This document shows positions 1 through 39,174 of a DNA stretch of 39,174 nt, one piece after another. Each line of letters starts with the position of its first letter. The stretch's first letter is position 1. This DNA comes from a virus. The notes below the pieces were generated by a model. That model was not told the origin of the DNA. It worked only from the letters and a program-made list of their open reading frames with translations, and made no database searches. The position numbers were made by a program, and so were the translations under genes. The stretch lies in IMG/VR virus record IMGVR_UViG_3300012971_000014, positions 1 to 39,174 of that record; one strand, 5' to 3'.

Positions 1-121
1 ATCGACGACGGCGCGCTCGCCGCTGGTACTGAGTCGGCCGCTATTTCCATCGACGACGGCGCGCTCGCCGCTGGTACTGAGTCGGCCGCTATTTCCATCG
101 ACGACGGCGCGCTCGCCGCTG
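1..121. repeat. 48-bp tandem repeat (2 full copies 1-48 and 49-96, partial 97-121)
   Basis: Unit atcgacgacggcgcgctcgccgctggtactgagtcggccgctatttcc read directly. It is in frame on the minus strand and encodes the 16-aa unit MEIAADSVPAASAPSS. The same array is present at the window end. Confidence 0.95.
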
Positions 122-410
122 ACACGGGCGGCGGCAGCTCAAAATCCGGGATCGTGATCTTGACCGTCTGGATCTTCTCGACGCGAATGAGGTGCCGATA
201 CGCCGGCAGGCCGCGGAGATTGCGCTCGATCTTCTCCAGCTCCTTGCCGATCGGGATCGCCTCATTCGCCTCGAAACGGCGGACCTGCCTCGCGTTCAGG
301 TGCGAGCGGTGCGCGAGTTCGTTGATCGAAAGTCCGCGCTGGTTTCGAAGTGCGGCGAGAGCCTCGCCGTAGGTTGCGTAAGGTGTGATCCACTTGTCCC
401 CCGGCATCAT
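3..410 (-). CDS. XRE-family HTH protein; 3' end runs off the window start with no stop codon (continues in frame across the junction)
   Basis: ATG at 410 overlaps the stop of the upstream gene (ATGA at 407-410). My translation MMPGDKWITPYATYGEALAALRNQRGLSINELAHRSHLNARQVRRFEANEAIP has the classic HTH_3 pattern. It then reads PPPVSAASAPSS followed by MEIAADSVPAASAPSS repeats. Absent from the ORF track, presumably because no stop lies inside the window. Confidence 0.75.
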   Translation of the reverse strand, partial: MMPGDKWITPYATYGEALAALRNQRGLSINELAHRSHLNARQVRRFEANEAIPIGKELEKIERNLRGLPAYRHLIRVEKIQTVKITIPDFELPPPVSAASAPSSMEIAADSVPAASAPSSMEIAADSVPAASAPSS

Positions 411-10453: not shown

Positions 10454-10635
10454 AGGTCCCGTCGCCGACGCCATGCGAGCTTTGCGGGGCGCGTCGCTTC
10501 TATCGTCGGCCGCCGCCGCGCTGCCGGCGCTGCTACCACGCGATTCGCCGCGCGCTCCTCGCCGAGCGGCGGCGCGCTGAGCTCGTCGGCGCGCTCATCG
10601 GCCAGGCGGCGCTCGAACTGGAGACCAGGCCATGA
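10450..10635 (+). CDS. small zinc-ribbon protein (61 aa; CELCG...CRRC)
   Basis: ATGA overlaps at both ends (10450 and 10632). Two CxxC pairs. Confidence 0.65.
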   Translation: MKVPSPTPCELCGARRFYRRPPPRCRRCYHAIRRALLAERRRAELVGALIGQAALELETRP

Positions 10636-11381
10636 CTTGGGAGCTGCGCGCGTCCGATTGCCTCGACGCCGTGTCCGGGCTTGCGTCGCTCGCCGATGCG
10701 TCGGTGGATTCGATCCTGACGGATCCACCCTATTCGGCGGATCTCTATACGCGCACCGCGACGAACAAGGGCCGAGAGGGATTCACGCAGGGGGAAAAGG
10801 CGCGGATGATCATAGCGTTCACACTGGCGAGCGGGCGCATCGGGGCGGTCGACGACATCATCGAGCCATGCGCCGCCGAGTTCATGCGCATCTGCCGGCG
10901 GTGGATGCTCGTCTTCTCGGACATCGAGATCGCGCCGCGATGGCGCGCCGCACTTGGCGATTGGTATCTGCGCACTGGCGTTTGGGTTAAGACCGATCCC
11001 ATGCCGCAAATCACCGGCGACCGGCCGGCGCAGGGATTCGAGGCCTGCACCATCGCGCATCGCCCGGGAAAGAAGCGATGGAACGGCGGCGGCCGCGCGG
11101 CTGTCTGGACGCATGGAACCGGCAAGGGTGCCGCGCGGCCGAATCACCCTTGCCCTAAGCCGCTCTCGCTCATGACCGCACTCGTCGAGGATTTCACCGA
11201 TCGCGGCGAGCTCATCTGCGACCCGTTCGCCGGCTCAGGCACGACCGGCGTTGCCGCCATCCGCGGCGGCCGGCGCTTCATTGGCTGGGAGAGAGATGCG
11301 CAATATGCCGAGACCGCGCGCCGCCGCCTGGCCGACGCCCGCGAGCAACTGTCTCTCTTTGCCGCCGCATCCGATTCGTAG
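10632..11381 (+). CDS. DNA methyltransferase, beta-class N6-adenine/N4-cytosine family (DPPY type; 249 aa)
   Basis: Motif IV SILTDPPYS precedes NHPCPKPLSLM and motif I CDPFAGSGTTGVAA. This order and the DPPY motif are typical of beta-class N6A enzymes. Confidence 0.92.
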   Translation: MTWELRASDCLDAVSGLASLADASVDSILTDPPYSADLYTRTATNKGREGFTQGEKARMIIAFTLASGRIGAVDDIIEPCAAEFMRICRRWMLVFSDIEIAPRWRAALGDWYLRTGVWVKTDPMPQITGDRPAQGFEACTIAHRPGKKRWNGGGRAAVWTHGTGKGAARPNHPCPKPLSLMTALVEDFTDRGELICDPFAGSGTTGVAAIRGGRRFIGWERDAQYAETARRRLADAREQLSLFAAASDS

Positions 11382-11389
11382 GAGTCGCT

Positions 11390-11602
11390 ATGTCGCCAGC
11401 GATCAAAGCCATTGCCCGTCATTCTTGGCAGCGCGCCTCCGACCCGTGGCACGCGGTCTGCGCCTCCTGCGGGCTCGAGCGGCGCGGGCGCGGACGGGCG
11501 GCGCGCCATGGGACGCGGCGCATCTGGATCGAGGAGTACAGCCGCGACGGGGCGACATGGACCGAGGCCAGGGTGCCGGCGCCATGCACGGGGGCGAGAT
11601 GA
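11390..11602 (+). CDS. hypothetical small protein (70 aa)
   Basis: GGAG at 11381-11384 lies 5 nt before ATG 11390. Sequence MSPAIKAIARHSWQRASDPWHAVCASCGLE... Confidence 0.6.
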   Translation: MSPAIKAIARHSWQRASDPWHAVCASCGLERRGRGRAARHGTRRIWIEEYSRDGATWTEARVPAPCTGAR

Positions 11603-11603
11603 C

Positions 11604-12563
11604 ATGGCTCTGCGTGCCCTGTCTCTCTTCTCCGGCGTCGGCGGGCTCGACCTCGCCATGCGACGAGTGGGCATGCGCACCGTGTGTTACGTCGAACGGG
11701 AAGCTTACGCCGCGTCCGTCCTCGTGGCCCGGATGGCGGATGCGTCCCTGGATCCGGCTCCTGTCTGGGATGACGCTTGCACCTTCGACGGCGAGCCATG
11801 GCGTGGCCGAGTGGATTGCGTCTTTGGCGGATTCCCCTGTCAGGACATCTCCCTCGCAGGGCGAGGCGGTGGGCTCGACGGCGAGCGGTCGGGTCTATGG
11901 CGCGAGTATGCCCGCATCGTCGAAGCCGTTCGCCCTGAGATTATATTCATCGAGAATGTGCCCGCACTGGTTAAGCGCGGGCTCGATCGAGTTCTGTACG
12001 ATCTGCATGTCCTCGGGTTCGATGCGGAGTGGGATCTGTTCTCTGCCGCCGACGTCGGCGCCACGCACCGCCGGAAACGACTCTTCGTTCTGGCCTACTC
12101 CGATCGCGGCCTCCGCTGGCTACAATCAAGGTGGATCGGCGGGGAGGGTGGGGCCGAAGCGATACAGCCTGCACGCGATCGAGAAGCTGTGGCCCACGCC
12201 CATAGCACGCGAGGGCAACCGCCCGCGAGAGGGCGGTCCTTCGCTCGGTTATCTGGTGACGAGGATGTGGCCGACGCCGACGGCAGACGACGCCAAGCAG
12301 AGCGGAGCGGCTGGCTACTCGACGGCGAGCGGCAGGCACGCGGGTACCACCCTGACGGATGCTACGTGCCGTTCCCCCCTGCACGAGACGATGGCAACGG
12401 GTGGCGAGCCTACCTCGACCGGTGGCCGGGTCTTGAACCCTCGCTTCGTCGAGGCGCTCATGGGCTTGCCCATCGGATGGACCGACTGCGCGTCCTCGGA
12501 AACGCCGTCGTACCTGCGCAGGCCGAGCATGCATTCCGCAAGCTCGCCAAGCGGTGCGGGTGA
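11604..12563 (+). CDS. DNA (cytosine-5) methyltransferase; the central third is only recognisable in the +1 frame (frame-disrupted or mis-assembled)
   Basis: The frame of ATG 11604 carries FSGVGG (I), GGFPCQDIS (IV), IFIENVP, HRRKRLFVLAY and the terminal LGNAVVP (X, 12495-12515). Interval 12091-12483 shows three WPTP boxes and LNPRFVEALMGLPIGWT only in the frame of ORF 11251..12567. Confidence 0.8.
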   Translation: MALRALSLFSGVGGLDLAMRRVGMRTVCYVEREAYAASVLVARMADASLDPAPVWDDACTFDGEPWRGRVDCVFGGFPCQDISLAGRGGGLDGERSGLWREYARIVEAVRPEIIFIENVPALVKRGLDRVLYDLHVLGFDAEWDLFSAADVGATHRRKRLFVLAYSDRGLRWLQSRWIGGEGGAEAIQPARDREAVAHAHSTRGQPPARGRSFARLSGDEDVADADGRRRQAERSGWLLDGERQARGYHPDGCYVPFPPARDDGNGWRAYLDRWPGLEPSLRRGAHGLAHRMDRLRVLGNAVVPAQAEHAFRKLAKRCG

Positions 12564-14799: not shown

Positions 14800-15174
14800 A
14801 TGGGCAACGAACCATTTCGCGAATGTCCGCGATTCGACGCCTGCAGTTGCAACGTGTGCCCGCTGGATCCGCTGGCGCATCTGCGCGACGCGCTCGGCGG
14901 CGAGGAGGAATGTCGCGCGACGCGCTCGACGAGAGAGACGATCGCGGCGAGACATCTCGGCGTGCTGCCATCTGGCGGCCGCCTACCGCATGAGATCGCA
15001 CGGGACAAACGCCGCGCCTCATGGGCAGCGCTGCCAGAAGACCATCCCACCAAGGTTGCGCTGCAGATCGGGCGCCGCTCGTTCCGCAAACGCGATTTGC
15101 CCACGCCCAAAAAGGACGGGACCCAATCAGCCGAGCCCGATGGCCAGATCGTCGGTCGGGATAAAAATGCGTGA
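14800..15174 (+). CDS. hypothetical Cys-rich protein (124 aa)
   Basis: Internal ATG 14800 of ORF 14737..15174, preceded by GGGAGGAGGG (14784-14793). Sequence MGNEPFRECPRFDACSCNVCPLDP... Confidence 0.7.
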   Translation: MGNEPFRECPRFDACSCNVCPLDPLAHLRDALGGEEECRATRSTRETIAARHLGVLPSGGRLPHEIARDKRRASWAALPEDHPTKVALQIGRRSFRKRDLPTPKKDGTQSAEPDGQIVGRDKNA

Positions 15175-15685
15175 GAACCCTGTTACTGTAACGACGCTTA
15201 CAACCGAGCCGCTCCTGCGGTTTTTCGTGCCGGGCACGCCGCGCGCGCAGGGATCGAATCATGTCGCGGGCGCGACCAAACAGGGCCGCTTGTTTGTGCG
15301 CGTCACCGACGGTGCCGAGCTCACGAGCTGGCGCAAGTCGGTCGCCACTGTCGCGCGCGCCGCCATGCTCGACGCCCGCGTGCGCCTCGTCGAGGGCGCG
15401 CCGATCTTCGGGGTGCTCACGTTCACGCGCCTGCGCCCGCGCGCGCACCTGAACGCGGCCGGCGATATCAAACCCAAGCACGCCGCCAGTCTGCCAATCA
15501 CCAAACCCGATTACGATAAGCTGGCGCGCGCCGTGTCCGATGCATTGACCGGCGTTTTCTATCGCGACGACGCCCAATGCACGACGATGCTCATTCGCAA
15601 GCGATTTGCTCAATGCCAGGGCGCGCTCGTCGAGCTTTGGTTCGATCACTCGGATCCCGATTTTGCCGTCGAGGATAACCGATGA
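15167..15685 (+). CDS. rusA: RusA-family Holliday junction resolvase (172 aa)
   Basis: Internal ATG 15167 of ORF 14990..15685. KPDYDKLARAVSDALTGVFYRDDAQC matches the RusA catalytic signature (PDxDNL.K..lDaL....y.DD.q). Confidence 0.88.
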   Translation: MRENPVTVTTLTTEPLLRFFVPGTPRAQGSNHVAGATKQGRLFVRVTDGAELTSWRKSVATVARAAMLDARVRLVEGAPIFGVLTFTRLRPRAHLNAAGDIKPKHAASLPITKPDYDKLARAVSDALTGVFYRDDAQCTTMLIRKRFAQCQGALVELWFDHSDPDFAVEDNR

Positions 15686-16746
15686 TTCGCGCACCGTTCC
15701 CCTATTTCGGCGGCAAGTCGTCGATCATCGATATCGTCTGGCAACGTCTTGGCCGTCCAAAGCAATACATTGAACCTTTCTGCGGATCGGCGGCCATCCT
15801 TCTCGGCGCGGCGGCGCCAGCATCACTTGAGGTCGTAAACGACATTAATGGATTCATCGCCAATTTTTGGCGCGCCACGAAATATCAGCCGGGGGATGTT
15901 GCCAGATGGGCAGATTATCCGGTGAGCCATATCGATATCGGCGCGCGACACCGCTGGCTCATGGAGCAACGTGCGCGCATCGGCGACGCGCTCCTTGAGC
16001 CGGAATGGCCTGGCGATGCCAAGATCGCAGGATGGTGGTTATGGGGGCAATGTTGCTGGATTGGATCTGGCTGGTGTGAGTGGCTCGGCAAGATTCCACA
16101 CGTGAGCGACGCAGGCAGGGGCATTCAGGCCATCGGCAAGATCCCATACGTGAGCAGCGCAGGCATGGGCATTCATGCCATCGGCCAGATCCCACACGTG
16201 GGCGACGCAGGCATGGGCATTCATGCCATCGGCAAGATTCCACACGTGAGCGACGCAGGCAGGGGCATTCAGGCCATCGGCAAGATTCCACACGTGAGCG
16301 GCCCAAGCATGGGCGCTATGCTGACATCCGCTGGCCGCGTGGCATGGTATCAACTGCATCGCATCGCCGACCGTCTCGAGCGCGTGCGAATTCTCCACGG
16401 CGACTGGCAGCGCTGCCTAAATTCTCATTATGGCGCCACCAATACTGCTGTCTTTTTCGATCCGCCATATGCTGGGAATGAGGAGATATATCGCACGGAT
16501 CCCGTCGCGCCAATCGTCGAATCATGGGCGAAAGAGAACGCATGCATGCGCATCGCCCTATGCGGCCTCGTCGGCGATTACGACTTGCCAGGCTGGGAGA
16601 TCGTACGATGGTCGCGCGACCGACATACTTACGGGAGCAACAAAACGACGCGTATGGAGGCGATATGGTTCTCCCCTGCGTGCGCGCCGCCTATGCAGGG
16701 TGACCTTTTTTCGATCGTGAGGGAATGCAATGCGCAAGATGATTGA
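15682..16746 (+). CDS. D12-class (Dam-like, alpha-order) N6-adenine DNA methyltransferase with internal 16-aa tandem repeats (354 aa)
   Basis: N-terminal PYFGGKSSI...YIEPFCGSAAILLG (motif I region) and C-terminal FFDPPYAG (motif IV). The repeats GKIPHVSDAGRGIQAI lie between them. Confidence 0.9.
   Translation: MIRAPFPYFGGKSSIIDIVWQRLGRPKQYIEPFCGSAAILLGAAAPASLEVVNDINGFIANFWRATKYQPGDVARWADYPVSHIDIGARHRWLMEQRARIGDALLEPEWPGDAKIAGWWLWGQCCWIGSGWCEWLGKIPHVSDAGRGIQAIGKIPYVSSAGMGIHAIGQIPHVGDAGMGIHAIGKIPHVSDAGRGIQAIGKIPHVSGPSMGAMLTSAGRVAWYQLHRIADRLERVRILHGDWQRCLNSHYGATNTAVFFDPPYAGNEEIYRTDPVAPIVESWAKENACMRIALCGLVGDYDLPGWEIVRWSRDRHTYGSNKTTRMEAIWFSPACAPPMQGDLFSIVRECNAQDD
16087..16320 (+). repeat. 48-bp in-frame tandem repeat, 4 full copies plus a diverged fifth
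   Basis: Copies at 16087-16134, 16135-16182, 16183-16230 and 16231-16278, with a partial from 16279. Copies 1 and 4 are identical, and copies 2 and 3 differ from each other at 4 positions. Confidence 0.95.
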
Positions 16747-38130: not shown

Positions 38131-38345
38131 GTCTTATCTCCAGTCGCGCAAGCCCAGTGCACCGGGACGCAGACGGCATTATACGGGCGCCCCTCGCGCG
38201 CCCGTTCCTGCGCCTCTTCGTCGTCGCCTGGCCCCACCACAATGAGCGTAACCTCGTCGCCGACCGCGAATGCGCGGCGGCACGCCGGGCAGATCTCGCC
38301 GATGGTCGGGTGCCCATAGGGCAACGGGTCGTAGCGGCGCATCAT
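38127..38345 (-). CDS. small CxxC protein ending VPVHWACATGDKT (72 aa); paralogue of 2086..2346
   Basis: ORF-track protein MMRRYDPLPYGHPTIGEICPACRRAFAVGDEVTLIVVG... ATGA overlap with the upstream stop. Confidence 0.7.
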   Translation of the reverse strand: MMRRYDPLPYGHPTIGEICPACRRAFAVGDEVTLIVVGPGDDEEAQERAREGRPYNAVCVPVHWACATGDKT

Positions 38346-38986
38346 TGGCCGGCGACCTCGGCGAGCATGCGGCGGAGATTCTCGGCGAGGAGCTTCTCGG
38401 CGCTGACGCTCTCCTCGACCTCGCGCTCGGCGGCGGTCAAGGCCTCGCGGATCTTGGCGACGCGCGCCTGCGCGTCCCTCGTACCGATGCGCGCCTTATC
38501 GAGCGCGGCGGCCACGCCGGCAAAGTCCGGTGCCTTGGCTGGCGCTGGCGCGGCGACCTTGGCGAGTTCCGGTCGCCGGATGGTTTTGGCGGCCGCCGGC
38601 CGGGATTTGGCGGCGCGCTTTTTCGCGCCGACCTCGGCGGCGCATTGGATGCAATAGGGGTTTAGCCCGTCGGCGCGATAGCTGGCGCGATAGAATTCCG
38701 ATTTGGGTTTGGTCTTCCCGCAATGCGGGCAGCGTTTCTCGCCATCGGTCTTTGGCAGCGTCAAATGCAGCGCCGCGCCGACGAGAGTGGATGGCAATCC
38801 GATGCCGGGGAAAACCGTCTCGAGCTTATGCACAGCGGGATCCATGATCACATTTCGCGGATGGATCTCCCATCGGTTGATCGTGCCGGCGCTCACACCG
38901 ATCAGCTCGGCGAGTTGCTCCTGAGACAGTCCCTTTGCCTTACGCGCGGCACGCAGGCGCGCATTCCACCCCGCAGTTTTTCCCAT
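38342..38986 (-). CDS. XRE-type HTH plus C4 zinc-ribbon protein (214 aa from ATG 38986); the frame stays open upstream to the window end
   Basis: MGKTAGWNARLRAARKAKGLSQEQLAELIGVSAGTINRWE (HTH_3), CPHCGKTKPKSEF...CIQC (zinc ribbon) and a Lys/Ala-rich and coiled-coil tail. AAGGGA RBS 5 nt before ATG 38986. ORF track 38342..39172 shows no stop upstream. Confidence 0.75.
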   Translation of the reverse strand: MGKTAGWNARLRAARKAKGLSQEQLAELIGVSAGTINRWEIHPRNVIMDPAVHKLETVFPGIGLPSTLVGAALHLTLPKTDGEKRCPHCGKTKPKSEFYRASYRADGLNPYCIQCAAEVGAKKRAAKSRPAAAKTIRRPELAKVAAPAPAKAPDFAGVAAALDKARIGTRDAQARVAKIREALTAAEREVEESVSAEKLLAENLRRMLAEVAGQ

Positions 38987-39092
38987 GATGTCCCTTTCCG
39001 TCTCGCGTTCGCTACCCCCCTCAACATCCCCCTCGACATCATCGACGAGCGCCAGGGGCGCAGGCGGCGGCGATGGTGCCGGCAGCCATGGC

Positions 39093-39174
39093 GCCGCTGG
39101 TACTGAGTCGGCCGCTATTTCCATCGACGACGGCGCGCTCGCCGCTGGTACTGAGTCGGCCGCTATTTCCATCG
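39093..39174. repeat. 48-bp tandem repeat (partial 39093-39122, full 39123-39170, 4 nt of the next copy); same array as nt 1-121
   Basis: Direct comparison of the window end and start: 39123-39174 equals 1-52. Confidence 0.95.

Follow-up and report, generated by a model that had tools for sequence, protein, structure and literature searches.

A fast-evolving in-frame repeat cassette, probably in the DNA-recognition loop, of a mostly phage-borne family of Dam-like methyltransferases

Orphan DNA methyltransferases are a main counter-measure of phages against restriction, and the evolution of their target range is poorly understood. The complete virus record IMGVR_UViG_3300012971_000014 of IMG/VR (39,174 bp; the window analysed here) raises a question of this kind. 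One of its genes encodes a Dam-like N6-adenine methyltransferase with an array of 48-bp tandem repeats between the cofactor-binding and the catalytic motifs. What is the array doing there, and how does it change? The explanation that we favour, and consider probable though by no means secure, is that the array is a family-wide, fast-evolving repeat cassette in the DNA-recognition loop, altered by slippage or recombination and by gene conversion under diversifying selection. The gene, its motifs and the repeat units are as follows.

15682-16746, plus strand: orphan D12-class (Dam-like, alpha-order) N6-adenine DNA methyltransferase of 354 amino acids (aa), P0001, the sole open reading frame (ORF) here with homology support
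15700-15717, plus strand: N-terminal PYFGGK, residues 7-12, in the motif X region (the equivalent in EcoDam is WAGGK); aligns to DpnM and EcoDam
15772-15789, plus strand: motif I, EPFCGS, residues 31-36, binding S-adenosylmethionine (AdoMet); aligns to EPFVGxG of DpnM and EcoDam and is invariant in the homologue alignment A1
16057-16083, plus strand: WIGSGWCEW, a conserved segment just 5' of the array, nearly invariant in alignments A1 and A3
16087-16134, plus strand: repeat unit 1 (type A), GKIPHVSDAGRGIQAI; identical to unit 4 over 48/48 nt
16135-16182, plus strand: repeat unit 2 (type B), GKIPYVSSAGMGIHAI; differs from unit 1 at 6 nt
16183-16230, plus strand: repeat unit 3 (type B'), GQIPHVGDAGMGIHAI; differs at 5 nt from unit 1 and likewise at 5 nt from unit 2
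16231-16278, plus strand: repeat unit 4 (type A), GKIPHVSDAGRGIQAI; the same as unit 1
16279-16326, plus strand: degenerate terminal unit 5, GKIPHVSGPSMGAMLT, leading into the conserved LTSxGR segment
16459-16470, plus strand: catalytic motif IV, DPPY, residues 260-263; aligns to DPPY of DpnM and EcoDam

Tandem Repeats Finder places the array at 16085-16314 with a period of 48, 4.8 copies, 89% matches and a score of 362. In the frame of the ORF it occupies 16087-16326, the units starting at 16087, 16135, 16183, 16231 and 16279. Units 2 and 3 have three changes in common relative to unit 1 (ATT to ATC, AGG to ATG, CAG to CAT). Unit 5 follows the A type for its first 22 nt and is degenerate thereafter, with 13 mismatches. 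Opposite-strand and +2-frame open frames across the array are without homology support and are what a stop-free, GC-rich repeat yields. A preliminary description made from the sequence alone had given the coordinates, the 48-bp unit, the count and the A-B-B'-A-A' pattern, and all of these are borne out by Tandem Repeats Finder together with the in-frame reading. The same is true of the full identity of copies 1 and 4 and of the position of the array between the AdoMet-binding N-terminus and DPPY. Its treatment of copies 2 and 3 as a second subtype is fair but loose, as they share the three changes and still lie 5 nt apart.

The array changes in length by whole units. Ten clusters of family members at least 90% identical were opened, and in all ten some members are longer than others by exact multiples of 16 aa, the additional residues lying inside the array (for example 316/332/348, 311/327 and 287/303/319 aa). 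Thus the gain or loss of units without a break of frame, which had been proposed from the single sequence, is seen directly between near-identical genes. A fixed five-unit segment with diverged DNA in the homologues, which the preliminary description had named as the pattern that would speak against its own reading, is clearly not what we found.

The array also changes in sequence, at a few sites. Among cluster members of the same length the amino acid differences per site are 0.102 in the array versus 0.027 in the flanks, and 475 of the 501 array differences (95%) fall at unit positions 2 (K/Q), 7 (S/G), 8 (D/N/S) and 11 (R/M). These four hypervariable positions per unit are absent from the preliminary description. 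The protein P0001 and its nearest relative, P0124, are 96% identical; 11 of the 13 residues that differ lie within the array. The genes L007 and L008 differ in their flanks at 4 of 819 nt, all synonymous (2 of 525 in a shorter flank comparison), and in the array at 11 of 201 nt, all non-synonymous and all in hypervariable codons. At three of the four positions the alternatives are near-isosteric residues that differ in charge. The alternative codons are one mutation apart (AAG/CAG, AGC/GGC, GAC/AAC/AGC, AGG/ATG), and of 59 arginine codons at position 11, 47 are AGG, although AGG makes up 6.6% of the arginine codons in the genes of this phage. Both observations fit repeated interconversion between the alternatives. 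Pure reshuffling of alleles between units at these sites has no support: in same-length pairs with two differences at a site, allele counts are conserved in 40 of 103 cases, versus 50% by chance.

Outside the hypervariable codons the units of one gene are kept alike. We counted third positions of the 12 non-hypervariable codons in 113 units of 41 genes. These positions are identical in 86.7% of comparisons between units within a gene, versus 48.1% between genes. Homogenisation within a gene reaches even the synonymous sites; this is concerted evolution, and the near-identity of copies was rightly ascribed to recent duplication or gene conversion. Despite this homogenisation of the other sites, positions 2, 7, 8 and 11 stay polymorphic within genes.

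The repeat is found throughout the family. Scoring of 8000 candidates gave 6141 homologues at E <= 1e-5, and the 16-aa unit stands at the same place in all 120 best of these (52-69% identical). The 120 proteins are 293-429 aa long and have one to five full units plus a truncated terminal unit, after which comes (L/M)(L/W)TSxGR; all arrays are in frame. In IMG/VR there are 162 relatives with the same unit; over these and the 120 homologues it occurs in 1-6 copies. The core of the unit is (K/Q)(I/V/L)PH(V/A/L)(S/G)(D/N)AG(R/M/Q/K)G(V/I), iterated 1-8 times. Its P, H, AG.G and Q-A are kept at 88-100% over hundreds of units, including variants of 13 to 18 aa. The same few residue alternatives recur in clades just 50-60% identical, and in more distant clades (36-44% identity) the core recurs in units of other lengths, 13, 14 and 18 aa:

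14-aa unit variants, in distant clades: KLPHLGDAGRGINR and KIPHVSNAGRGVQS
13-aa unit variant, in distant clades
18-aa unit variant, repeated eight times, in P0317: GQRPHLGDTGTGVHKISL
14-aa unit, 2.5 copies, in the cultured Mycobacterium abscessus prophage prophiGD11-3

The motif is also present in the isolate Cutibacterium phage CA1NRNZ. Two homologues, P0173 and P0175, have a single partial unit only, in a middle segment of 16 aa. A phmmer search with the array alone against 1.84 billion representatives returned 51 matches, six of which were inspected. Three of the six (411-507 aa) are D12 enzymes, and the other three, which are longer (856-993 aa) and match in several stretches, are Gly-rich repeat proteins of an unrelated kind; the unit was not found outside this methyltransferase family within these six. 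A lineage-specific 24-mer had no match in metagenome or viral contigs, and no DNA record exists for P0124.

Taken at the level of sequence, the repeat is best read as an old hallmark of the family, present as units of 13, 14, 16 or 18 aa in clades below 40% identity and continually re-homogenised, and not as a recent acquisition of this gene. The earlier claim of a recent duplication rather than an ancient repeat holds in part: the units are indeed kept near-identical by duplication or conversion, but the repeat type itself is old and family-wide. The D12-like family with the cassette is large, mostly phage-borne and apparently undescribed. We found no description of this 16-aa/48-bp repeat in the full-text literature searched; a paper that deals with non-specific enzymes of the Hia5 type refers to a divergent recognition region but to no repeats.

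What does the position of the array in the enzyme suggest? The assignment of P0001 to the D12 class is supported by Pfam PF02086 (39.1 bits at a cut-off of 22, E = 9e-10, in two stretches) and by phrog_56, 'DNA methyltransferase' (3e-26). Residues F9, G10, G11 and K12 and D260, P261, P262 and Y263 are invariant in alignment A1. The motifs follow the alpha order: PYFGGK, EPFCGS, the recognition region and DPPY. The protein falls outside the canonical GATC Dam subfamily TIGR00571, with 41.4 bits versus a cut-off of 114.85 over residues 6-70 only. The AlphaFold2 model has a predicted local distance difference test (pLDDT) score of 70-94 in the core. Its best Foldseek matches in the PDB are EcoDam, DpnM and T4Dam (probability 1.00, E from 2e-7 to 1e-3), and the fold is Dam-like, the match to EcoDam having E = 2e-7 and a template modelling (TM) score of 0.56-0.60 normalised to the target.

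These three are solved D12-class alpha-order GATC N6-adenine methyltransferases (PDB 2g1p, 4rtj, 1yf3 and 2dpm). With them P0001 shares the fold, the PF02086 domain and the motif order (F/W)xGGK, EPFxGxx, recognition region, DPPY. It has its array where they have the beta-hairpin recognition loop (PMC4417163). On the other hand, it is only about 12% identical to them, and their hairpin sequence (NLRGEFNVPFG) is unrecognisable; instead, the family has 1-8 near-identical units of 13 to 18 aa with hypervariable positions.

The alignment of the family to EcoDam with hhalign (probability 76.6%, E = 2e-5, low column confidence at the array) was made against enterobacterial Dam sequences only, a set of low diversity with at least 86% identity. 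It pairs WIGSGWCEWD of the homologue P0054 with EcoDam Y117-N126 (YGYNGLCRYN), and the G-x-LLTS-x-GR segment after the array with EcoDam R128-R137. The array becomes an insertion between N126/L127 and R128, at the tip of hairpin 118-139, which is the recognition loop of EcoDam (PMC4417163). WIGSGWCEW is the proposed counterpart of the first strand of this hairpin. The conserved hairpin itself (118-139, ...GLCRYNLRGEFNVPFGRY...) was not found in P0001, the array taking the place of its tip in this low-confidence alignment. The array stands at the position of the EcoDam recognition hairpin, and its units may, to judge from the pairing, be homologous to hairpin residues. PF02086, the fold match and the hhalign placement together agree with the initial view of a D12-class alpha-order methyltransferase with repeats in the target-recognition region.

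The suggestion that the units form a solenoid is not supported by two AlphaFold2 models. The array has a pLDDT of 32-50 in the protein with five units and of 29-39 in a homologue with three, with isolated short strands only; the models were built from shallow alignments (40 and 51 sequences) and contain no DNA. The array is most economically read as a flexible loop, perhaps one that becomes ordered on DNA.

The favoured explanation would combine these observations in the following way. The copy number would change when replication slips or when 48-bp units recombine unequally, short-tract gene conversion would homogenise the units, and diversifying selection would keep four surface positions variable. 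In EcoDam and T4Dam a hairpin reads the target bases; the cassette would be placed at the tip of that hairpin, as a flexible loop ordering only on DNA. Its length and charge pattern (the K/Q, D/N and R/M toggles) could tune the DNA that is bound or methylated, or the efficiency of methylation. With such tuning an orphan methylase that counters restriction could keep pace with shifts in the restriction systems of its hosts. The likely consequence of a change in the cassette is altered DNA contact, that is, target preference, affinity or processivity.

Several points weigh against this explanation. Besides the low confidence of the hhalign columns at the array, the family profile aligned to PDB sequences covers the N-terminus and DPPY only and does not bridge the recognition region. 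We infer DNA contact from the position only, and AlphaFold2 gives no confident structure for the array. The substitutions (K/Q, D/N, R/M, S/G) are conservative and could also reflect relaxed constraint at four exposed positions together with fast unit turnover. Nearly all sequences of the family come from short-read metagenome assemblies, which are prone to miscounts and mosaics in tandem repeats. Only five loci were found in species-representative genomes, all of them metagenome-assembled genomes, and only four records matched in the phage collection, so that very few cultured phages have the family.

There is a precedent for a change of specificity by an in-frame tandem repeat within the DNA-recognition component of a methyltransferase. 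In EcoR124I and EcoR124II a change by one TAEL repeat keeps the protein intact and converts GAAN6RTCG into GAAN7RTCG (PMC7383803). The analogy is partial. The 4-aa unit of EcoR124I/II is a coiled-coil spacer between the two recognition domains of a separate S subunit, whereas the unit of P0001 is 16 aa long, contains Gly and Pro, lies in a monomer-type Dam-like enzyme, within its only recognition region, and has hypervariable residues in addition. Phasevarions (Type III mod, Type I hsd) resemble the phage array in being a repeat-mediated, rapid and heritable variation of methyltransferases. However, their short simple-sequence repeats shift the frame and switch the enzyme ON or OFF. As 48 is divisible by 3, the phage gene stays in frame in every variant seen, and the array is not an ON/OFF switch. 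A phase-variable methyltransferase of that kind was considered and rejected, the length variants in the 10 clusters being full-length.

Of the rival explanations the one that survives best, though we think it rather unlikely, is an arms race at the protein surface. The array would be an exposed loop, the target of a defence sensor or inhibitor of the host or else the binding site for a partner from host or phage. Changes in unit number and in the four residues would serve to evade that recognition or to keep it, leaving the methylated sequence unaffected. Change focused on four positions and almost wholly non-synonymous among near-identical genes is the usual signature of antagonistic co-evolution, the models predict a flexible and exposed array, and charge is toggled at three of the four positions. 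However, the literature searched contained no sensor or inhibitor of phage Dam-like enzymes aimed at this loop, and we know of none. Contact with DNA is the simpler assumption for an array at the position of a DNA-reading hairpin, and the recurrence of the same residue alternatives across clades 50-60% identical looks more like a constrained functional alphabet than like open-ended escape.

It is doubtful, too, that the array is a tolerated slippery linker, that is, a permissive loop in which the copy number drifts and four weakly constrained positions flicker without functional effect. A neutral linker would decay, but P, H, AG.G and Q-A are held at 88-100%. Homogenisation alone should erase polymorphism of the hypervariable kind, which nevertheless persists, and the array of the best pair (L007/L008) has 0 synonymous versus 11 non-synonymous changes. 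What speaks for a linker is the lack of an AlphaFold2 fold for the array, the conservative nature of the substitutions, and P0173 and P0175, in which one partial unit goes with a complete protein, making extra units dispensable.

Less probable again is a stronger form of DNA contact, a combinatorial cassette in which each 16-aa unit would lie along the DNA beside the flipped adenine, and the hypervariable residues (K/Q, S/G, D/N/S, R/M) and the number of units would set a target preference that is extended or relaxed. A comparable pattern is known from the array of transcription activator-like (TAL) effectors, with 34-aa units, near-identical DNA, variation at the repeat-variable diresidues and variable unit number. 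The phage array resembles it in pattern only, namely in the few variable positions per near-identical unit, the varying number of units and the location within a DNA-binding protein, and we do not propose membership. The phage unit has half the length, and no helix or other fold is predicted for it. There is no evidence of a correspondence of one unit to one base, and the variable residues are mostly charge toggles and not a four-letter code.

An assembly artefact is very improbable, although it is the chief technical caveat. Short-read assemblers may collapse, expand or chimerise a tandem repeat and so create both the unit number and the mosaic of variants; almost all the sequences are from metagenome assemblies, and the identity of units 1 and 4 over 48 nt, with a match of unit 5 extending over 22 nt, is of a kind that confuses de Bruijn graphs. 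However, the five-unit array and an identical P0001 protein were recovered in an independent MEGAHIT assembly from ENA (L004, a 36,550-bp contig), and identical arrays occur in contigs from different samples in three pairs (L017/L018, L026/L028 and L062/L063). The isolate genomes prophiGD11-3 and CA1NRNZ have the motif, and every array is in frame with the same truncated last unit. Even chimerism would still require real variant units in the population.

To targeted hypermutation by a diversity-generating retroelement (DGR) or a similar dedicated mutator we give hardly any credence: the variation is limited to a few codons, and AAG/CAG, AGC/GGC and AAC/GAC/AGC resemble the A-to-N changes of DGR variable regions, but a search of the complete 39,174-bp record for a PF00078 reverse transcriptase gave 0 candidates while control genomes were positive, which excludes a DGR target, the commonest toggle, AGG/ATG, is G/T and not at adenine, the pattern is family-wide across unrelated phages, and the data are explained without copying from a template repeat.

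Some further observations were made on the repeat-bearing genes of the family and their neighbours. In L007 the methyltransferase gene adjoins a YqaJ exonuclease and RecT recombinase pair (L007:1-1721); a phage single-strand-annealing recombinase in the vicinity could promote exchange between the 48-bp units. In L006 it adjoins a gene for a 680-aa B12-binding radical-SAM protein (L006:2821-4863). A sub-clade (proteins P0010, P0062, P0067, P0086, P0095 and P0120; loci L021, L029, L033, L044 and L046-L048) has an extra segment of about 25 aa, rich in Arg, Gly and Asp, between WIGSGWCxW and the first unit, for example ...ARRQRREGDTGGREG.DATSAG.... Judged by its protein sequence, this segment resembles repeat units that have degenerated or are read in a shifted frame. 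P0016 (429 aa) is a fusion of an N-terminal Rho_N-like domain (PF07498, from precomputed annotation) to the repeat-bearing methyltransferase.

In the analysed record the methyltransferase gene is flanked by the gene of a RusA Holliday-junction resolvase and that of a small helix-turn-helix (HTH) protein. The RusA gene lies directly upstream, at 14990-15685 (PF05866, 4e-10), and its stop overlaps the start of the methyltransferase; the RusA protein has an N-terminal extension of about 80 aa without a Pfam match. Further upstream, at 10632-12563, there are two more orphan DNA methyltransferases. One is a beta-class N6/N4 enzyme (PF01555, 3e-21) and the other a C5 cytosine methyltransferase (PF00145, 2e-33), the match of the latter being limited to the first half of the profile.

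A second array with a 48-bp period, previously noticed in an HTH gene at the ends of the record, is real. It occupies positions 1-121 (2.5 copies, 100% identity by Tandem Repeats Finder) and resumes at 39078-39174. The gene is on the minus strand, 410..3 continuing at 39172..38342, and the array encodes the 16-aa unit MEIAADSVPAASAPSS on that strand. The MEIAADSVPAASAPSS units form the link between an HTH_3 (Xre-type) domain at the N-terminus and a C-terminal part, in which there are a second HTH-like segment and a Cys-rich motif. The array spans the junction of the 'direct terminal repeats' (DTR) of the record. As the contig breaks inside it, the copies counted may not be the true number, and the reported DTR may simply be the repeat of this array.

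To return to the methyltransferase, the family has thousands of metagenomic members in which a tandem cassette at the DNA-reading position changes far faster than the rest of the protein. Few enzymes show such a pattern, which points to an in-built device of evolvability. Should the variants be functionally equivalent, the family would still offer a clear example from nature of concerted evolution in which polymorphic sites are protected. If the combinatorial form of the cassette were true, the DNA protected by an orphan phage methylase would be re-set through slippage and gene conversion, and a Dam-like enzyme would have a naturally evolvable, modular recognition domain. More generally, if the cassette does affect specificity, it would be a new way of changing the specificity of a methyltransferase, and possibly a small engineerable recognition module.

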